Part shown: piece after piece, positions 1 to 6,093 of the stretch
How the letters are laid out: every line of letters starts with the position of its first letter
How positions within the stretch are numbered: the first letter of the stretch is position 1
From: a virus
Reading direction: 5' to 3' (one strand)
Length of the DNA stretch: 6,093 bases
Virus record (IMG/VR): IMGVR_UViG_3300045988_041325
Coordinates: 1 to 6,093 of that record
The notes under the pieces: model-generated
Seen by the model: the letters and a program-made list of their open reading frames with translations, nothing else
The model's database searches: none
What the model was told of the DNA's origin: nothing
Position numbers and translations under genes: made by a program

Positions 1-55
1 AAATCCGAATGCATTTAAGTCTCGTAAAACCGACCAATTTCTTTCGGTACTCCCT
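1..55. repeat. Terminal direct repeat, copy 1 (assembly overlap of a circular genome)
   Basis: The 55-nt string aaatccgaatgcatttaagtctcgtaaaaccgaccaatttctttcggtactccct at 1-55 is identical to 6039-6093, checked base by base. Unit length is therefore 6,038 nt. Confidence 0.95.
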
Positions 56-1246
56 TTGTGTGCTTACCAGAAAATTTATTTTGATTTTTATTCTAATTCT
101 CAATGGGAGCGTCACCTTGCTTACTCTTATAACACTGATTATATGCTGCAAGTTCAGGTATTCGACACTAATTTGGACAAGGAAATGATTAAACTCCGTT
201 ACGCGAATTATAACAAGGATTACTTTATGGGCGTTCTTCCTAACTCGCAATACGGTGATGTAGCGTTAGTTCAAGGTTCATTTACTACAGATAAAGACCT
301 TACTCTATTAGCATCTACTACTAATGCAGGCATTCAGGGTGTTTACCCTAATGGCTCGAACCCTCGGGATTTTAATTTAAAGCTTAATTCTCAAGTTGCT
401 TCGGGTTTTACTGCTGATAAACCACTATTTATCTCTAAGGGTGAAATAGCTAAAATCCAATCTTCGGTTTCTTATCTTGCTGTTCGTGCATCTGAATATC
501 TTCAGCGATGGAAAGAGGTAGTTCAATTCTCGTCTAAAGATTATAATGACCAAATGAAAGCCCAGTTTGGTGTTCGTGGTGACGATTCAATGGGTAACCA
601 TGCTCATTATATTGGCGGTTTTGATGGTAACATAGATATCTCCGAAGTTGTGAATACAAACCTTGACACTGAGGGTTCTCAGGCAAATATTGCAGGTAAA
701 GGCGTCGGCTCAGGACGTTCTAGAAAAATCCGCTATACTGTAGGTGCTGAACACTGTATTATTATGTGCATTTATCATGCTGTTCCATTGGTAGATTATA
801 ATATTGATGGTGCTGACCCTCAATTACAGCGTATTGCTATTTCTGATTTCCCGCAGCCTGCATTCGATTCGCTTGGTTTGGAGAGTGTTCCTCTAACCGC
901 GCTTACGGCATCCGCTATCGCCCTTGGTGAAAATGATTTATCTGATTATTTTGTAGGTTATTCATTGCGTTACCCTGATTTTAAGACACGAATTGACCGC
1001 ATTTCGGGTGCATTTCAAACAACTCTTAAAAACTGGGTTGCCCCGATTAATTGGCTGAATATTCTGACTGCTCAACGTGGTCAAGGTGCCTTTAACTATT
1101 TATCATTCAAGGTTCGTCCCTCACAGTTAGACCCTATTTTTGACGTTCAAGCAGATGAAAAGGTAGACACAGATCAGTTATTATGTAATGCTCAGTTTAA
1201 CATTAAGGTAGCCCGTAATCTCTCGCGAGATGGTTTACCATATTAA
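1..1246 (+). CDS. VP1: Major capsid protein VP1 (Microviridae F/VP1 family), C-terminal ~415 codons. Same ORF as 5521-6038 once the contig is circularised.
   Basis: The frame is open from base 2 (base 1 is the third position of a codon) to TAA at 1244-1246. The M at 56 in the track is a TTG artefact. The frame of the 5521 ORF passes through the repeat into this ORF (...WFTTNPNAFKSRKTDQFLSVLP-LCAYQKIYFDFYSN...). LCAYQKIYxDFY resembles the conserved (P)FRAYxxIWNxxYRD block of microvirus capsid proteins. Combined length is 1,764 nt, i.e. 587 aa plus stop. Confidence 0.9.
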   Translation, partial: NPNAFKSRKTDQFLSVLPLCAYQKIYFDFYSNSQWERHLAYSYNTDYMLQVQVFDTNLDKEMIKLRYANYNKDYFMGVLPNSQYGDVALVQGSFTTDKDLTLLASTTNAGIQGVYPNGSNPRDFNLKLNSQVASGFTADKPLFISKGEIAKIQSSVSYLAVRASEYLQRWKEVVQFSSKDYNDQMKAQFGVRGDDSMGNHAHYIGGFDGNIDISEVVNTNLDTEGSQANIAGKGVGSGRSRKIRYTVGAEHCIIMCIYHAVPLVDYNIDGADPQLQRIAISDFPQPAFDSLGLESVPLTALTASAIALGENDLSDYFVGYSLRYPDFKTRIDRISGAFQTTLKNWVAPINWLNILTAQRGQGAFNYLSFKVRPSQLDPIFDVQADEKVDTDQLLCNAQFNIKVARNLSRDGLPY

Positions 1247-1258
1247 TATAAAAAAAAT

Positions 1259-1735
1259 ATGAATAAACGTTCATTTGGAATCACCCCCGAACAGTTCGAG
1301 GAATTTAATAATATGACATCAGAAGTACCTGATATGACTGCGGTTACTAGTGAACCGCAACCTATGCGTCAGCCGTCCCCATATGACCAGATTGCGTTTG
1401 AAGAAACTCCGTCAGGTGCATTTCGTAAGTTTGATATGACTTATTTCCTTCTCCATCAGGAAAAAACTCGTAGAAAATTAGGAGACTCCCTATATCAGGA
1501 ACTTCTAGCAAGTATGCACCCGACCCAATCAACACTTCAGGACAATCTGACTGATGACCAGCGATTTGATATGGTAATTTCTCGTCACTGTCAAACCATG
1601 TCAGAACGTCAGGCAGTTATGGATTGGTTGCGCGAAGAACATGCAGACCTTATGCAACAGTACGAACAGGCTGTGCAGGAATCTGAACAACAACAATCAG
1701 AAGCTTCTGCGCCCGCTTCTTCTTCTGCTGAATAA
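1259..1735 (+). CDS. Hypothetical acidic, Gln/Glu-rich 158-aa protein. Position and size are compatible with an internal scaffolding (VP3-like) protein, but no motif was recognised.
   Basis: ATG lies 12 nt after the VP1 stop. The TAA stop shares one base with the VP2 ATG (TAATG at 1733-1737), suggesting translational coupling. Third codon positions are T-rich, as in the neighbouring genes. I recognised no family signature by eye. The C-terminus is QQYEQAVQESEQQQSEASAPASSSAE. Confidence 0.7.
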   Translation: MNKRSFGITPEQFEEFNNMTSEVPDMTAVTSEPQPMRQPSPYDQIAFEETPSGAFRKFDMTYFLLHQEKTRRKLGDSLYQELLASMHPTQSTLQDNLTDDQRFDMVISRHCQTMSERQAVMDWLREEHADLMQQYEQAVQESEQQQSEASAPASSSAE

Positions 1736-2856
1736 TGGGACTAAGTGCTTTTCTTGCAAAGCCTGCTGCGGGCTCTCTAATTAATGGTGCTGCTTCTATT
1801 GGCTCGTCATTTCTTGGTGGATTATTTGGCGCAAATGAAGCCAAGAAAAACCGCGATTTCCAGCTGGAAATGTGGAATAGACAGAATGAATATAATAAGC
1901 CCATTAATTGGCGTGCCCGAATGGAAGAGGCAGGATTTAACCCGTACAACGCTCTTGATGGCGGTTCAGGTATTGGACAATCTTCCAGTCTTCCGCAAGG
2001 TTCGCAGGGTCCGACTGTCGAACCTGCTGTAAACCTTGCGCAAGGTGCTTCGGACATTACTCAAGCATTTGCCAACCTCGCAAACGCCCGTAAGGCAATT
2101 GCAGGTGCGAAAGGCCAGGAAGTAACGAACGAGTGGTTACCTTATACGCTTGGTGGTAACGTTGATTACAAGAATCTTGCTATTGGTCAATCAGGCTATT
2201 GGAACAAGTCACGAGGCTATCAAATGGCAGAACTCGACCAAAGCAAGGAAAAACAGGAGTTTCTTAACCTGCAATACGCGCAAAAACTTATGCAGGCTCA
2301 GGAAACACTTACCAATTTGCAAGCTGACGCGCAAGGTGTCATGAACAAGTATATAGATGCTGACAACCAGGCAAATCTAGCGATTAAGGCTCAAAACCTC
2401 GTGAATCTGGTGAAGCTGGGCGCATTAACCGAAGCTCAAGCTTCGCGCGAGATTGCCCAAACTCTTGAAACTTATGCACGCGCAAAAGGTCTGAACATAA
2501 GTAATGAAATTGCAGAAAAAACCGCTCCTGCTATTATCTCCTCGACAATTGCAACAAATGCCTTATCGGCAAAGGAAGCCCGCACCGATATGCTGAATTT
2601 CAAACAATTGTACAAGAATAAGTACGAGCGCGACTATTACAATACTCGCATTAGCGAAAAGGAAATGAAAAATTTTGACCGCAATGCCCGAATGCAGAGA
2701 TTCAATCAATTTTCTACGGGTGTCGGTAACGCCATAGGCGGTTACGGTATTCTTCGTTCAGGTTCTCGAAGCTATTCAACCTATGACGGTCAAGGCACAT
2801 TTAACGCCCCGTCCCGCTATGGTCGACGATACTATGACTCTACAGTGAGCTATTAG
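1735..2856 (+). CDS. VP2: Minor capsid / DNA pilot protein VP2 (functional analogue of phiX174 H)
   Basis: The 373-aa protein has a Gly/Ala/Ser-rich hydrophobic N-terminus (GLSAFLAKPAAGSLINGAASIGSSFLGGLFGA). This is followed by EMWNRQNEYNKPINWRARMEEAGFNPYNAL, which matches the ...QR.M.(D/E)AG(L/F)NP... block typical of gokusho/alpavirus VP2. A long Q/A/K/E-rich, helical-looking central region follows. The gene sits downstream of VP1, as in other microviruses. Confidence 0.85.
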   Translation: MGLSAFLAKPAAGSLINGAASIGSSFLGGLFGANEAKKNRDFQLEMWNRQNEYNKPINWRARMEEAGFNPYNALDGGSGIGQSSSLPQGSQGPTVEPAVNLAQGASDITQAFANLANARKAIAGAKGQEVTNEWLPYTLGGNVDYKNLAIGQSGYWNKSRGYQMAELDQSKEKQEFLNLQYAQKLMQAQETLTNLQADAQGVMNKYIDADNQANLAIKAQNLVNLVKLGALTEAQASREIAQTLETYARAKGLNISNEIAEKTAPAIISSTIATNALSAKEARTDMLNFKQLYKNKYERDYYNTRISEKEMKNFDRNARMQRFNQFSTGVGNAIGGYGILRSGSRSYSTYDGQGTFNAPSRYGRRYYDSTVSY

Positions 2857-2874
2857 GTTTATATAATCCCAACT

Positions 2875-2906
2875 AAGGTATGTCATCCGTGAGGACAGCA
2901 TGCCTT
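2875..2906 (+). terminator. Stem-loop 19 nt after the VP2 stop; weak candidate intrinsic terminator for the structural operon
   Basis: aaggtatg (2875-2882) pairs with catgcctt (2899-2906): 8 bp including one T-G wobble. An apical tcc/gga stem (2886-2888 / 2893-2895) closes a GTGA tetraloop. The downstream tract tcccttatatttt is T-rich but interrupted. Confidence 0.35.
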
Positions 2907-3104
2907 TCCCTTATATTTTAAATTCTACCTCGCCCGACACATCTCTATACTTCGTAAGTTCTGTTCTTTTCCATGATTTGTAATGTTTTTGGTTATTAAT
3001 GTTGTTTATCTTTCTTTTCATCATAAATATAACCAATCTTACAATCATGTAAATTTACCACAGAACTAACAAAGCTTTAACAAATTTTTTCCGGAAGTAT
3101 CGAA

Positions 3105-3118
3105 CGTAGAATATTCTT
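3105..3118. repeat. Copy 1 of the direct repeat CGTAGAAT(A)TTCTT; contains the 10-bp palindrome AGAATATTCT (3108-3117)
   Basis: cgtagaatattctt at 3105-3118 versus cgtagaatttctt at 3360-3372. They match at 8+5 positions with a 1-nt indel at the centre of the palindrome. The two copies bracket the structured block. Confidence 0.6.
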
Positions 3119-3138
3119 CAGCCTCTCTATTCTTCCCG

Positions 3139-3203
3139 CGACCCTCTCTCCTCCTGTCCTGTCGGCGGTAGCCGATAAAAAATGAGAGAAGGGGTCGGTT
3201 TTT
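3139..3203 (+). terminator. Nested stem-loop (polypyrimidine arm paired with polypurine arm, plus an inner hairpin) followed by T5; terminator-like or end of an ncRNA
   Basis: cgaccctctctc (3139-3150) pairs with gagagaaggggtcg (3184-3197): 12 bp with a 2-nt bulge at 3190-3191. The inner hairpin is tcggc (3162-3166) / gccga (3171-3175) with loop ggta. The T-run ttttt is at 3199-3203. The region 3121-3163 is about 36/43 pyrimidine. Confidence 0.35.
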
Positions 3204-3204
3204 G

Positions 3205-3230
3205 GTTCTTTTTGGCGAGTCAAAAAGAAC
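3205..3230. repeat. Perfect 10-bp inverted repeat with a 6-nt loop (hairpin)
   Basis: gttctttttg (3205-3214) is the exact reverse complement of caaaaagaac (3221-3230). The loop is gcgagt. Confidence 0.85.
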
Positions 3231-3275
3231 AGCCCTCAGCAAAACTATTCATGTGTTAATCAAGCGAAGCCCATA

Positions 3276-3342
3276 GTTGTCTCCGTAAGGATTTGCCATC
3301 CCTGCATGGCAAACGGTTTTCTCTTGTCTATGTACGGACAAC
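3276..3342. repeat. Nested hairpin: outer 10-bp stem with a 2-nt bulge enclosing a perfect 8-bp stem-loop followed by TTTT
   Basis: Outer stem: gttg..tccgta (3276-3279, 3282-3287) pairs with tacggacaac (3333-3342). Inner stem: tttgccat (3292-3299) pairs with atggcaaa (3306-3313), loop ccctgc, then cgg and tttt at 3317-3320. ccg at 3283-3285 could alternatively pair with cgg at 3314-3316. Confidence 0.75.
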
Positions 3343-3359
3343 TCACACAATAAAATCTC

Positions 3360-3372
3360 CGTAGAATTTCTT
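3360..3372. repeat. Copy 2 of the direct repeat CGTAGAAT(A)TTCTT (arms AGAA/TTCT around a single T)
   Basis: See copy 1. This copy lies about 55 nt upstream of the small TM ORF start. It is followed by the 12-bp AT palindrome aaaatatatttt at 3384-3395. Confidence 0.6.
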
Positions 3373-3427
3373 GCATATATCAAAAAATATATTTTCCTTT
3401 GCCTATGTAATTTAAAACATATGCCTT

Positions 3428-3523
3428 ATGAGTACAGAAAACAACAAAAAAACCAATTGGATTACTGCGGTAATTTCCGCTATTGTAGCAGCATTAACGT
3501 CATTATTGTCTAATCTTGCCTAG
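3428..3523 (+). CDS. Candidate 31-aa single-pass membrane protein (holin-like partner of the downstream peptidase); not in the supplied ORF track
   Basis: ATG 3428 to TAG 3521-3523 encodes MSTENNKKTNWITAVISAIVAALTSLLSNLA. It has a polar/charged N-terminus followed by a ~20-residue Ala/Ile/Leu-rich hydrophobic helix (W11-L30). Its stop is 2 nt before the peptidase ATG at 3526. The hydrophobicity comes partly from GCN Ala codons, so it is not simply a T-rich frame artefact. Confidence 0.5.
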   Translation: MSTENNKKTNWITAVISAIVAALTSLLSNLA

Positions 3524-3525
3524 TC

Positions 3526-3834
3526 ATGAATGAGAATCTTATGAAATTTTTGGCATTCTTGCTTCAATCGGATTGTCATTTTACCGTTACGTCTGCCTTT
3601 CGGACACCCGAACATAATAAGGCAGTCGGAGGCGTATCTAATTCTCAGCATTTGAAAGGAGAAGCTATCGACTTCAAACCGTACCCTCCTACCTCTGCTA
3701 AGTATAATAATTTGCTTGAAAAGGTGTATGAATTCCGCGAGTTCAAACCTTTCGACCAATTTATAATTTATGACAACTTTTTTCATATTTCGTTTTCCGA
3801 CCGAAATCGGAATCAAGTAATTGATAAACGTTAA
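3526..3834 (+). CDS. Minimal zinc peptidoglycan peptidase, M15 family (Peptidase_M15_3 / DD-LD-peptidase fold); putative endolysin
   Basis: The 102-aa ORF reads ...CHFTVTSAFRTPEHNKAVGGVSNSQHLKGEAIDF...DQFIIYDNFFHISF. This matches the S-x-x-R-x4-N-x3-GG-x3-S-x-H-x2-G-x-A-x-D ... H signature. The candidate Zn ligands are H42 (3649-3651), D49 (3670-3672) and H87 (3784-3786). Confidence 0.8.
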   Translation: MNENLMKFLAFLLQSDCHFTVTSAFRTPEHNKAVGGVSNSQHLKGEAIDFKPYPPTSAKYNNLLEKVYEFREFKPFDQFIIYDNFFHISFSDRNRNQVIDKR

Positions 3835-3845
3835 CTATTTTTGTT

Positions 3846-5510
3846 ATGCAGTTGGATGATTATATAAACCTAGCATCTCATTGCGAGAATCCTATGGTTG
3901 TTCGTAATCGCTTTACAGGTGAAGATATTCTTGTAGGCTGCGGTCATTGCGCGTATTGCATTTCCCGACAGTCATCTATCAATTCTATTCGTATTGCTAA
4001 ATCTGCATCTAAGTGGAAGTATTGCTATTTCGTGACGTTAACCTATGACAATGAACATATGCCTCTCATTTCCTTGACTACCCAGGAGATGATTTCGGGC
4101 GAAATCGTGTATTCTGCTGATGGACTTCGTTACTCTTCTGATACTGAGTTTAAATATATGCCTCTGCGTGCTGCTGTGGCTCAGCGTCCCGCGTTCTCCT
4201 CAGAGTATCAAACGATTTTCTGCAAACAGGTTAACGGAACTATTCCGTTTAACCGCGAGACTAAGCGGAAAGAACCCATTGAGTTTACTTCTACTGCTGT
4301 CCCTGTTGATTTGCTTTGTCTTGTCTCGAAAACAACCCCTGAGACACCATTTAATGTACCTGATGATATGGCTGTACTTCCTATACTCAACTATTATGAT
4401 TGTCAAAATTATGTAAAAAGATTACGTATAAATTTAAATAGACTCGGTTGCAATGAAAAGATACATTTCTACGCTGCGGGTGAATACGGACCTGTTCACT
4501 TCCGCCCGCATTTCCATCTCTTATTATTCGGAAACACGCAGGAATTCTCCGAAACAGTTCGACAGGCTCACGCTAAGAGTTGGACGTTCGGTCGTTCAGA
4601 TATACAACTTACCACAGGAGGCGCTTCTTCTTACGTTGCGTCATATATTAGTGCCAATAGTATGCTTCCCGTCTTTTATCGGCAATCGAAAATTATGCGA
4701 CCCAAAAGCCGCGCTTCGTTGCGTTTCGATATGGAAGCACAGGAACCTGCTTCGTCTTCAGACGAAGAGATTGCGCGGGTTGCCTCTTACATCTGTGATG
4801 GACGAAGCTTTATCGTCAACTCTAAACATATTAGCGTTAATGCCTCCCGTTCGTATCTCAATACCGTATGTCCCCAATTCAATGGATTTCGAAGAACTGA
4901 TATTGATGAAATATCTTTCCTTGTTCAATCTGTGGCAACGGCTTCTCAACGACTCAAACTCTTCCCTAAAAAGAGAGATTCCGAACAAGTAGGTGTTTCT
5001 GTTCTTGCGATTTCTCGTGCATACCTAGATTGTATATCTTCAAAAAATAGTTTAACTTATGAAGACTATTCCATTCTAAATCAGTGTCGTATGATTTCCC
5101 CGAATGGCTTTCATATTGGTGGTAGAATCCTGAATCCCGAGATTGCTCTAGGCTGTATATATCGGCTATTCCTTACCGTGTCCAAATTTCTACGGTTTTG
5201 GAAACTTCCCGACAGTCCCTCATTCCATGAGATAAAAAAAATATATATTCGATGTTTCGCTGCTCTTGATGCCCGCGAACTTCGACTTCTTCAAGAAAAA
5301 TATTCCCTTGCTGAAGCTGTTTCGGATGAATATGCAGATTATAATCATTATACCTTATTCTTACCGAAAGATATTGGTTTGAATTTGCAGGATATTTATA
5401 AAGATGCCTATTTGGAAAGATTGTTGAAAAATAATAATGCCGCAAAGGCTCGTCGGCTTGTGAAACACAAGCGATTAAATGATGCCAACGGTTTATTTGC
5501 TAACATATAA
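3846..5510 (+). CDS. VP4: Rolling-circle replication initiation protein VP4 (HUH endonuclease, phiX174 A-like)
   Basis: 554 aa. The N-terminal Cys cluster is CENP...CGHCAYC. RCR motif I is FVTLTY (4029-4046). Motif II is HFRPHFHLLLFG, with HFH at 4509-4517. Motif III is YVASYIS, with two Tyr spaced Y-x3-Y (4632-4634 and 4644-4646), as in phiX174 gpA. The YVKRLR...EYGPV block lies upstream of motif II, as in other microvirus VP4s. Confidence 0.93.
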   Translation: MQLDDYINLASHCENPMVVRNRFTGEDILVGCGHCAYCISRQSSINSIRIAKSASKWKYCYFVTLTYDNEHMPLISLTTQEMISGEIVYSADGLRYSSDTEFKYMPLRAAVAQRPAFSSEYQTIFCKQVNGTIPFNRETKRKEPIEFTSTAVPVDLLCLVSKTTPETPFNVPDDMAVLPILNYYDCQNYVKRLRINLNRLGCNEKIHFYAAGEYGPVHFRPHFHLLLFGNTQEFSETVRQAHAKSWTFGRSDIQLTTGGASSYVASYISANSMLPVFYRQSKIMRPKSRASLRFDMEAQEPASSSDEEIARVASYICDGRSFIVNSKHISVNASRSYLNTVCPQFNGFRRTDIDEISFLVQSVATASQRLKLFPKKRDSEQVGVSVLAISRAYLDCISSKNSLTYEDYSILNQCRMISPNGFHIGGRILNPEIALGCIYRLFLTVSKFLRFWKLPDSPSFHEIKKIYIRCFAALDARELRLLQEKYSLAEAVSDEYADYNHYTLFLPKDIGLNLQDIYKDAYLERLLKNNNAAKARRLVKHKRLNDANGLFANI

Positions 5511-5520
5511 ATTTATACTT

Positions 5521-6093
5521 ATGTCAGATTTTAATCCTCTTGTTCGGAAATCAATTCCAACCCATCGTTCAGGATTTGATATGTCCGAAAAAAAGATGTT
5601 TACCGCCAAGGTTGGTGAACTCTTACCTGTGATGTGGCAATATGGAATACCTGGTGATGTCTTCGAGATTTCTGAAGATTGGTTTACCCGTACCCGTCCT
5701 GTTAACACTTCTGCTTATACTCGTATCCGTGAGTATTATGATTTTTATGCTGTTCCCTTGCGTCTTCTTAATCGCAATCTTCCTACTGCATTTGCACAAA
5801 TGAGTGATTATGCTGTATCTGCTATTAATAAGTCGCAAAACTCTTATTTAATGGAGGATATCCCGAATGTCTCTCAGAATATTTTGGAACGCACGTTTAC
5901 GTCATATCTTAAACCTACTGATTTGGATGATGCCGGTTTCCCTGTTCGTGCTACTTCTCAGAAACTTTTAAATTATCTGAATTATGGTGCTATCGATTCC
6001 GAGGTATCGGCATCTAGTATGACTTCATGGTTTACTACAAATCCGAATGCATTTAAGTCTCGTAAAACCGACCAATTTCTTTCGGTACTCCCT
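5521..6093 (+). CDS. VP1: Major capsid protein VP1, N-terminal part. It runs off the window end; 6039-6093 duplicates 1-55.
   Basis: ATG at 5521, 10 nt after the VP4 stop, followed by 191 codons with no stop up to the window edge. MSDFNPLVRKSIPTHRSGFDMSEKKMFTAKVGELLPVMWQYGIPGDVFEISEDWFTRTRPVNTSAYTRIREYYDFYAVPLRLL matches the N-terminal hallmark of the Phage_F capsid family (H.rSgFDlS...fTak.GeLlPv...PGD.f......R..P......d.y.F.VP.RLL). It is absent from the ORF track only because it has no in-window stop. Confidence 0.92.
   Translation, partial: MSDFNPLVRKSIPTHRSGFDMSEKKMFTAKVGELLPVMWQYGIPGDVFEISEDWFTRTRPVNTSAYTRIREYYDFYAVPLRLLNRNLPTAFAQMSDYAVSAINKSQNSYLMEDIPNVSQNILERTFTSYLKPTDLDDAGFPVRATSQKLLNYLNYGAIDSEVSASSMTSWFTTNPNAFKSRKTDQFLSVLP
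6039..6093. repeat. Terminal direct repeat, copy 2 (assembly overlap of a circular genome)
   Basis: Identical to 1-55. Confidence 0.95.

Follow-up and report, generated by a model that had tools for sequence, protein, structure and literature searches.

Does a very short open reading frame (ORF) that ends just ahead of a putative endolysin gene in a microvirus encode a lysis factor of its own? We examined this in the 6,093 nucleotides (nt) of IMG/VR virus record IMGVR_UViG_3300045988_041325 (positions 1 to 6,093; this whole stretch is called the window), where an ORF of 31 amino acids (aa), here the mini-ORF, runs from an ATG at 3428 to a TAG at 3521-3523. The first-pass annotation had described it as having one predicted helix and a stop 2 nt before the ATG of a peptidase gene, which we confirmed, and had taken the pair for a holin-endolysin arrangement in miniature. 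We found that the mini-ORF is a genuine gene, judging by a pattern of substitutions that indicates strong purifying selection. As to its product, our leading reading, to which we give slightly less than an even chance, is a minimal holin-like membrane lysis factor that would be translationally coupled to the endolysin. The parts of the locus are as follows:

3428..3523, plus strand: mini-ORF, MSTENNKKTNWITAVISAIVAALTSLLSNLA (31 aa, then TAG), predicted to be a single-helix membrane peptide, tail-anchored and N-in
3428..3457, plus strand: polar basic head MSTENNKKTN, residues 1-10, net charge +1
3458..3520, plus strand: hydrophobic helix starting with Trp, WITAVISAIVAALTSLLSNLA, from hydropathy and helical wheel
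3524..3525, plus strand: spacer tc, 2 nt, from mini-ORF stop to peptidase ATG, a stop/start junction suited to termination-reinitiation
3526..3834, plus strand: Peptidase_M15_3, short form, 102 aa, putative endolysin (Pfam, PHROG)

ORFs of 25 aa or more number 59 in the window, many being hydrophobic artefacts of alternative frames, and an ORF of this size is therefore no evidence by itself; the mini-ORF is taken as a real gene because it is conserved, not because the ORF exists. When the window was compared with a relative whose peptidase is 95% identical (L001), the mini-ORF showed 8 synonymous and 0 non-synonymous differences, against 2/4 and 0/8 synonymous/non-synonymous differences in the other two frames; the peptidase gene showed 26 synonymous and 5 non-synonymous changes. 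Over the 16 members of the window clade the protein sequence of the helix was invariant with many synonymous changes, the sole amino-acid variation being T9N in the head, and the 2-nt stop/start junction was kept in 16/16 loci. Because 12 of these 16 members were retrieved by exact-peptide or patterned searches, that subset is biased; the four contigs retrieved via the peptidase (L125-L128), which are unbiased with respect to the peptide, also showed just T9N plus synonymous changes.

The same pattern was found in relatives whose peptidases are 55-65% identical to that of the window (type A). Their ORF is 26-29 aa long, has the consensus MKSNNIWKIVIGAVSAALGYILNAIGL, and its stop overlaps the peptidase ATG as ATGA. 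In 87 type-A loci, 80 distinct DNA sequences encoded only 19 distinct peptides, and nucleotide diversity at codon positions 1, 2 and 3 was 0.120, 0.009 and 0.312, third-position diversity thus being 35 times that of the second position. The pooled Nei-Gojobori ratio of non-synonymous to synonymous substitution rates (dN/dS) of 84 non-redundant loci was 0.076 in the peptide frame and 1.4 and 7.8 in the other frames; the corresponding ratio for the peptidase was 0.20-0.22. The suggestion that the ORF might not be translated at all is effectively refuted by these selection data. In a further group (type B) the peptides resemble that of the window: Dulem virus 257 and 236 carry MKSETKSKIWSAIIAAAVSLLTSIAQIFS ahead of peptidases which are 43-46% identical to that of the window, with a spacer of 3 nt (spacers were 2-3 nt in the window clade and these two genomes), and L350 and L353 bear a similar 32-aa peptide of the window's own type (window versus L350: p = 0.0005 in composition-preserving shuffles made separately for head and transmembrane part). 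The peptide belongs to a diverse set of 26-32-aa peptides of Bacteroidales-type (Alpavirinae-like) microviruses. The conservation tests covered window-type, type-A and smalltalk-type peptides (the last introduced below), and other small ORFs mentioned here are single observations.

The architecture described by the first-pass annotation, a short charged head followed by one hydrophobic helix, also held in our predictions. The top hydrophobic segment spans residues 11-27 and continues to residue 31 (KD19 1.95; summed Hessa scale -0.6 kcal for 11-27), and AlphaFold2, run on the single sequence, gave one helix over residues 3-30 with a mean pLDDT of 90. The head is predicted to face the cytoplasm from the positive-inside rule. 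On a helical wheel the small or hydroxyl-bearing residues T13, A14, S17, A18, A21, T24, S25 and S28 lie on one half and bulky aliphatic residues on the other, and such a small/polar stripe on the membrane helix was common to all peptide types. The C-terminus lies within the helix (...LLSNLA), there is no charged residue past K8, and the peptide has no Cys and no Pro. An in-frame stop lies 5 codons upstream of the ATG, so a longer product of this frame is impossible in the window; the peptidase gene is read in a different frame.

To determine how closely the peptide follows the peptidase, we searched IMG/VR for the type-A peptide by a degenerate DNA pattern, independently of the peptidase, and recovered 120 contigs. 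The peptidase was found at the canonical ATGA overlap in 108/120 and further downstream in 3/120. In the remaining 9/120 there was no peptidase, and Rep, the replication initiator gene, started about 53 nt past an intact conserved peptide gene, the mini-ORF then standing directly ahead of Rep; no M15 or Amidase_2 was found anywhere in these nine genomes. In a Rep tree the nine were scattered among peptidase-bearing genomes on very short branches, and as this tree is unresolved or recombinant it indicates only nesting in type-A diversity, not peptidase loss versus gain. The linkage of peptide and peptidase is therefore strong and not obligatory.

Microviruses with a long-form M15 peptidase (130-180 aa) were more varied. 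Bajarodmic virus 1034 has a 31-aa membrane ORF 25 nt upstream of its long-form M15, bajarodmic 155 has a 47-aa small hydrophobic ORF adjoining it, and a 29-aa hydrophobic ORF overlaps the long-form M15 start in L347, a possibly similar but single case; MG945328, another single case, has a window-like 29-aa ORF just downstream of the peptidase. A small hydrophobic ORF was seen only about 400-600 nt upstream, right after the pilot gene, in bajarodmic 66 and 850, and none was found adjacent to the long-form M15 of phiHBP1 or bajarodmic 28, 1107 and 388. The sole cultured Bacteroides microvirus found, phiHBP1 of B. fragilis (L096, PV598014), has a soluble ORF of 54 aa ahead of its long-form M15, which is 134 aa long; its paper is silent on lysis genes, and a literature search found nothing on phiHBP1 lysis. 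Small hydrophobic ORFs with synonymous bias, which the first-pass annotation proposed to look for upstream of M15 genes, were found in the window clade and type A; Microvirus mar63 and several long-form M15 microviruses have no such ORF beside the peptidase gene. With the chromosomal loci described below included, this type of peptide recurs beside three kinds of signal-less murein hydrolase, namely the short and long forms of M15 and Amidase_2.

The neighbouring gene is assigned to Peptidase_M15_3 (E 6.3e-14, 52.5 bits against a cut-off of 23.2) and to the endolysin family phrog_894 (5e-20). Its zinc site H-x6-D ... H is intact (SQH42LKGEAID49 and H87) and invariant over 9 relatives. The statement that the enzyme lacks an export signal was upheld, as it has no hydrophobic stretch sufficient for a signal or signal-arrest-release domain, and homologous short-form peptidases reach a KD19 of at most 0.8-0.9. 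AlphaFold2 without an alignment gave a pLDDT of 56, too poor for a fold search, with a low-confidence helix at residues 3-14, and the closest entry in a PDB sequence search was the T5 L-alanyl-D-glutamate peptidase 2mxz, a weak match (E 0.006). In tailed phages, homologues of this peptidase are the endolysins of lysis cassettes. Bacteroides phage BS-TP3 has a 158-aa 'holin family protein' directly upstream; in Flavobacterium phage hemulen an ORF annotated PF05105, a holin family, shares one base with the peptidase gene (ends 2369, starts 2369); and Stenotrophomonas phage Salva has holin, antiholin and spanin genes after its peptidase gene. In microviruses, M15_3 (PF08291) has been reported from 6 Alpavirinae and 5 Gokushovirinae and proposed to be a horizontally acquired 'possible endolysin', an unknown ORF adjoining 5/11 of these genes (Roux et al. 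2012, PMC3394797).

Some of the microviral peptides belong to a named family. One of them, the peptide of bajarodmic 1034, MSTKNKTFETILRVIIAVASALAGAFGYSQF, falls within Pfam DUF6486 (PF20096; 1.8e-11) and NCBIfam NF033879 'smalltalk protein' (9e-10), a hypothetical equivalog; smalltalk and DUF6486 (PF20096) are one Bacteroidales family without an assigned function, and our literature search found no paper on the function of either. Microviral peptides of type C scored 37-46 bits against a cut-off of 24.7 and 43.9 bits against a cut-off of 22.7 in smalltalk/DUF6486 searches. Bajarodmic 622 and 324 and Dulem 247 and 249 encode smalltalk members above the cut-off in genomes without a hydrolase, the gene standing just ahead of Rep or of the capsid gene. 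The window peptide gave no match to NF033879 or PF20096 at E up to 10, and type A likewise matches neither. A profile of types A and B aligned to the smalltalk profile with hhalign at a probability of 92% (score 28.5), against 10.0 for the reversed profile, at most 14.8 for whole-column shuffles and 5-13 for unrelated signal peptides. We downgraded the face value of this probability after a control in which only the transmembrane columns were shuffled and the head was kept fixed: the median was 20.1 and 2/60 reached 28.5 or more, so most of the similarity is architecture and composition. In pairwise shuffles, L350 versus type A gave p = 0.01, type A versus the smalltalk member of Dulem 247 p = 0.001, and the window directly versus smalltalk members p = 0.006-0.03. 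A chain of homology from the window through L350 and type A to Dulem 247 is plausible, and we describe the window peptide as smalltalk-like: it may be a diverged relative and does not count as a demonstrated member of the family.

When 185,579 species genomes were scanned with a degenerate smalltalk pattern, 47 sites were recovered, of which 43 lie in Bacteroidales (Bacteroides, Phocaeicola, Parabacteroides, Prevotella, Mediterranea and others). One Xylanibacter site is a microvirus prophage with smalltalk directly ahead of Rep. A signal-less Amidase_2 of about 150 aa adjoins smalltalk on the same strand, often with overlapping stop and start, in about 18 of the 43 loci. The degenerate smalltalk DNA pattern gave 0 matches in IMG/VR, and tblastn of a bacterial smalltalk peptide gave no match in phage records, probably owing to low-complexity masking. 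We also noted a conserved chromosomal module of HU-HIG, smalltalk and Amidase_2 genes (L156-L202, e.g. L169 2462-3682), which in L169 and L193 lies beside genes of an apparent capsule locus, these being on the other strand. In about half of the bacterial smalltalk peptides the C-terminus is lipobox-like, with ...(T/S)(A/S)C and then 1-3 residues, and these peptides resemble a lipoprotein signal peptide that has hardly any mature part; no Cys occurs in the window peptide or in type A.

Other lineages hold different small ORFs in the slot just upstream of Rep. Alpavirinae-like contigs from IMG/VR (L325-L346, L348, L352) carry 55-71-aa ORFs in which the head and helix are smalltalk-like and are followed by a lipobox Cys and a Ser/Thr/Gln-rich tail of about 35 aa, e.g. 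MDNQKIYKTLEIIVKAVLAIAALWLCISC|TMSMSISKNN...; these are predicted to be small lipoproteins. In L360-L382 only a soluble 64-aa ORF occupies this slot.

In the holin-like reading, the 31-residue peptide would be tail-anchored, with its basic head in the cytoplasm and its single helix across the inner membrane. It would be made late in infection, build up in the inner membrane, self-associate via its small-residue face and permeabilise or depolarise the membrane in the manner of a holin, whereby the co-translated signal-less M15 peptidase would reach the murein. Where a relative has no phage hydrolase, this membrane lesion would act by itself or via host autolysins. We infer each of these steps, from the topology and oligomerisation of the peptide to membrane permeabilisation, coupled translation and any part in lysis. 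The main grounds for this reading are the selection acting on the peptide, the small-residue stripe and the recurrent apparent coupling to three signal-less hydrolases, and it is further favoured by the tight linkage of the peptide to a hydrolase that cannot export itself, by the parallel gene order with a long-form M15 in bajarodmic 1034, by the annotated holins beside the tailed-phage homologues and by the Amidase_2 neighbours of chromosomal smalltalk genes. The coupling of mini-ORF and peptidase would follow from the stop/start junction. When set against known holins, the peptide has a transmembrane domain by prediction (KD19, Hessa scale and the AlphaFold2 helix) and lies 2 nt from an endolysin gene with which it would be co-expressed; a hydrophilic charged C-terminal domain and a size of about 60-150 aa are lacking. 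The best matches to holin families were weak (Phage_holin_3_3 E 0.033, 14.8 bits against a cut-off of 28.4; phrog_443 E 0.011), inconsistent over the 12 relatives scanned and below cut-offs, and thus a hint only. From the proposed holin-endolysin arrangement we retain the junction, the selection and the parallel with tailed-phage cassettes, and not a place in a holin family or a charged C-terminal tail.

Several observations weigh against this reading. Pfam and PHROG scans gave no significant match of the peptide to any holin family, it has neither a charged C-terminal tail nor, in the window, a dual start, and it is hard to see how a 31-residue helix could pass a folded enzyme of 12 kDa. The peptide is kept and conserved in at least 13 complete or near-complete genomes without M15 or Amidase_2 (the nine type-A contigs plus four complete microvirus genomes of the smalltalk type), and the same holds for further contigs that are partial, among them L350 and L353; a holin without an endolysin would not be expected to lyse a Gram-negative cell unaided. 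Conversely, Microvirus mar63 has the peptidase and no small hydrophobic ORF, a 58-aa soluble ORF overlapping the peptidase start instead, and phiHBP1 forms plaques without such an ORF beside its M15. Among the chromosomal loci, about 17/43 have no hydrolase near smalltalk, and an HU-HIG DNA-binding gene is the commoner neighbour, lying upstream in 26/43. Amidase_2 enzymes, moreover, can act in the cytoplasm, as AmpD does in recycling. The idea that the peptide is the peptidase's dedicated partner did not survive these comparisons: its persistence without a phage hydrolase fits an autonomous effector better, for which a phiX174 E-type lysis protein, a depolarising toxin recruiting host autolysins and a non-lysis role are the options. 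The peptide can thus be described, from its context and architecture, as holin-like, yet separable from the endolysin and without a holin C-terminal domain.

The alternative which survives best is a membrane accessory with no part in lysis, acting in superinfection exclusion, in modulation of the host envelope or signalling, or as a signal-peptide-like decoy, its position reflecting operon packing. Neither the peptide gene nor the peptidase gene strictly needs the other, the most frequent chromosomal neighbour of smalltalk is HU-HIG and not the amidase, about half of the bacterial peptides look like signal peptides with almost no mature part, and small lipoprotein-like ORFs fill the same slot in other Alpavirinae lineages. 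However, linkage to three types of murein hydrolase, often with overlapping stop and start, is hard to attribute to packing, and the window peptide, with no Cys and no residues past the helix, cannot be the precursor of an exported product. We consider this explanation unlikely.

Next in order, and unlikely as well, is that the peptide is an amurin: it would bind and inhibit a membrane enzyme that makes or flips peptidoglycan precursors, in the way that phiX174 E acts on MraY and the 37-aa LysM on MurJ, and the M15 peptidase would be an optional accessory. This would account for the retention of the peptide in genomes without a murein hydrolase, where it is the only obvious membrane-type candidate, and for a strongly conserved transmembrane sequence, as expected for a specific protein-protein contact. 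It would, however, leave the near-universal ATGA coupling unexplained, as a coupled cytoplasmic peptidase would meet the wall only after lysis, and the chromosomal relatives in Bacteroidales would be self-toxic. The phiX174 E gene is embedded in a scaffold gene and its product has an essential transmembrane proline, whereas the mini-ORF is embedded in no other gene and its product has no transmembrane proline; there was no family match to E either. The sole solved lysis mechanism of a microvirus is nonetheless of the amurin kind (Roux 2012, PMC3394797).

It is improbable that the peptide serves as a membrane tether or activator of the peptidase without making holes, or as its signal sequence via a frameshift fusion. 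In favour of this, the stop/start junction would be expected to yield the two products in similar quantities, the n-region/h-region organisation of the peptide is that of a signal peptide, and GenBank records of Dulem virus 238, 243 and 226 annotate a 124-aa peptidase through the mini-ORF region. The first 21 codons of that annotation, however, are in another, poorly conserved frame (MENHHWCC... versus METHYWSR...) over the unannotated mini-ORF, whose own frame is conserved, and the 124-aa form is a mis-called start, not a fusion. A fusion by frameshift was rejected on this ground and because the peptidase frame in the window has a stop 5 codons upstream of its ATG and no slippery heptamer was found. 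The peptide also persists without the peptidase, and tethering the enzyme at the cytoplasmic face would not give it access to the murein. The three annotated coding sequences are those of L097, L098 and L099 (PP511332, PP511322, PP511396).

Finally, a chance ORF, or an upstream ORF that merely loads ribosomes for the peptidase, is suggested by the very short length among so many window ORFs but is scarcely credible, and the latter form was rejected, given a dN/dS of 0.08, the 35-fold excess of third-position diversity, the purely synonymous changes of the window clade, and an intact gene where no peptidase exists to be served.

The minimal holin-like reading thus remains the one we prefer, and the peptide is probably part of how these phages burst Bacteroidales cells. 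A wider proposal, possible although on balance doubtful, is that smalltalk-like peptides of 26-32 residues are unrecognised minimal membrane lysis effectors and the missing lysis gene of Bacteroidales-infecting (Alpavirinae-type) microviruses, acting alone or passing a signal-less hydrolase (short M15, long M15 or Amidase_2) across the inner membrane, with the chromosomal HU-smalltalk-amidase modules of Bacteroidales as domesticated or ancestral versions of this two-gene device. Such peptides would then be by far the smallest holin-type proteins known.

The window itself is a single unit of a circular microvirus genome cut open within the capsid gene: bases 1-55 are identical to 6039-6093, and the genome is therefore circular and about 6,038 nt long. 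Every clear gene is on the plus strand, and the features other than the mini-ORF and peptidase are:

5521 across the junction to 1246, plus strand: major capsid protein (Phage_F)
1259-1735, plus strand: 158-aa ORF
1735-2856, plus strand: pilot protein
2857-3427, between pilot gene and mini-ORF: stretch of 570 nt without a credible plus-strand gene
2857..3427, no strand: non-coding stretch, remnant of a deleted complementary-strand gene, two perfect hairpins
3846..5510, plus strand: replication initiator, Rep (PF23343 3.9e-13, phrog_942 2e-37)

This gene order matches that of an Alpavirinae-type microvirus. Alpavirinae-type microviruses are known as Bacteroidales prophages (PMC3091885), and we infer a Bacteroidales host for the window phage. 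The relatives came from gut samples of human, lemur, dog, marmot and rodent. A megablast of window positions 2860-3900 against GenBank phages gave zero matches, and the window clade is therefore missing from the GenBank phage collection. An Rfam scan of the whole window gave just a chance snoRNA match (E 0.62), and the Bacteroides -7 promoter motif TAnnTTTG occurred 6 times against 6.1 expected, with none ahead of the mini-ORF. A 179-aa ORF lies in an alternative frame inside the Rep gene (4453-4992, plus strand), and is also open in the distant relatives L244 and L255 (183 aa), with a similar start (MKRYISTL / MDRYISTL); it may be an overlapping gene inside Rep comparable to phiX174 gene B inside gene A.

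The stretch upstream of the mini-ORF could contain the complementary-strand origin or regulatory DNA. It holds two perfect hairpins (3205-3214/3221-3230, 10 base pairs (bp), and 3292-3299/3306-3313, 8 bp) with no Rfam match, and relatives also have a gap of 400-950 nt between pilot gene and mini-ORF. Antisense genes are unusual in Microviridae. The closest relatives (L115-L121, L123, L124) have a conserved complementary-strand ORF of 84 aa (MEKNKTYEVW...SGDVEFRM), and often one of 64-68 aa too; these proteins had no Pfam or significant PHROG match. The window and L122 retain just the two ends of the 84-aa gene (window 2911-3048, minus strand; remnants 2974-2921 and 2943-2914), which indicates an internal deletion. 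One antisense gene beside a peptidase has been mentioned previously (Roux 2012, PMC3394797).

In type A (L203-L322) the peptide frame is open for 59-100+ codons upstream in 120/120 contigs, and 85/120 have an in-frame ATG 52 codons ahead of the Trp. The resulting ORF of about 73 aa has extra hydrophobic segments, no significant match in a PHROG scan, and a +1-frame overlap with almost the whole of a conserved 64-aa gene (MQKFIIS) that precedes the mini-ORF in type-A relatives and is absent from the window. In the overlap, the 64-aa frame had half the synonymous diversity (0.21) of its codons outside the overlap (0.43), the value for the peptidase being 0.49. The long-ORF frame had a dN/dS of 0.63, the third frame 2.8 and the same frame upstream of its ATG 2.8; the +1 frame of the peptidase, as a control, gave 0.86. 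This suggests, and does not prove, dual coding in the type-A overlap, and type-A phages might make both a holin-sized protein and a 27-aa internal-start product. In the window, type B and smalltalk-type genomes, in-frame stops lie a few codons upstream, leaving the short peptide only.

Part of this was already on record. Gene calls for the exact 31-aa product exist on contigs from 156 blocks of public assemblies. Its type A and B relatives have entries named 'hypothetical protein' in JGI/IMG, and two of them, DAH84300.1 (a member of the type A cluster) and DAE51345.1 (type B), are also in GenBank third party annotation (TPA) Microviridae records. The related family has NCBIfam and Pfam models; contrary to the first-pass annotation, this ORF does not fall below gene-calling thresholds. 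Our literature search found no function for the mini-ORF peptide, no holins or small membrane ORFs of microviruses and no membrane partner of microviral peptidases. In the human gut, Alpavirinae-type phages rank with the most abundant phages, and microvirus lysis is understood only for phiX174. Well over 200 assembled genomes conserve the peptide, which is under tighter constraint than the adjoining enzyme and is the only membrane-type lysis candidate in hydrolase-less relatives. Should it permeabilise membranes, it would set a new lower size limit for holin-like function and would be the first functional lead for the smalltalk/DUF6486 family of Bacteroidales. With its 31 residues, the peptide also offers a handle for lysis engineering in Bacteroides. 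The lysis question can be tested directly, given so small a construct and the Bacteroides microvirus host system that is now available (PMC13064476).

Among known systems, phiX174 E is likewise a small single-helix membrane protein of a microvirus. The peptide differs from it in having its own genomic slot, no sequence similarity, chromosomal bacterial relatives and a usual coupling to a peptidase, which amurins do not need. Type I toxin peptides of the TisB, Hok and Fst class are about 20-50 aa long with a single hydrophobic helix; the peptide resembles them in size, in its single helix and in a post-translational membrane insertion that would be expected to end in depolarisation, but no antisense-RNA antitoxin context is evident and it is a phage late-operon gene joined to a murein hydrolase. 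Small holins have themselves been likened to type I toxins, and the holin TpeE, of about 8 kDa, has been cited as 'very small' (PMC9527704); at 27-32 aa the peptide is less than half as large as the smallest characterised holins, as the first-pass annotation's impression of an unusually short holin would have it. With the TpeE/BhlA family (TCDB 1.E.27) and other holins it shares a membrane helix encoded directly beside a signal-less endolysin gene and, with small holins, a small-residue face suited to self-association; TpeE is about 70 aa, and unlike holins the peptide has no amphipathic or charged C-terminal domain and occurs in some genomes without any endolysin. The M15_3 enzymes of Roux et al. 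2012 (PMC3394797) are of the same family as the window's neighbouring gene, although neither a conserved 27-31-aa membrane ORF nor a holin partner was described there. From smalltalk/DUF6486 the window peptide differs in having neither the ...GALG... core nor the frequent C-terminal Cys, and it resembles this family in its length of about 30 aa, its basic head (usually with Trp), its Ala/Gly/Ile/Val-rich single helix, its microvirus and, by an indirect link, Bacteroidales setting, and its position, often directly ahead of a signal-less murein hydrolase.

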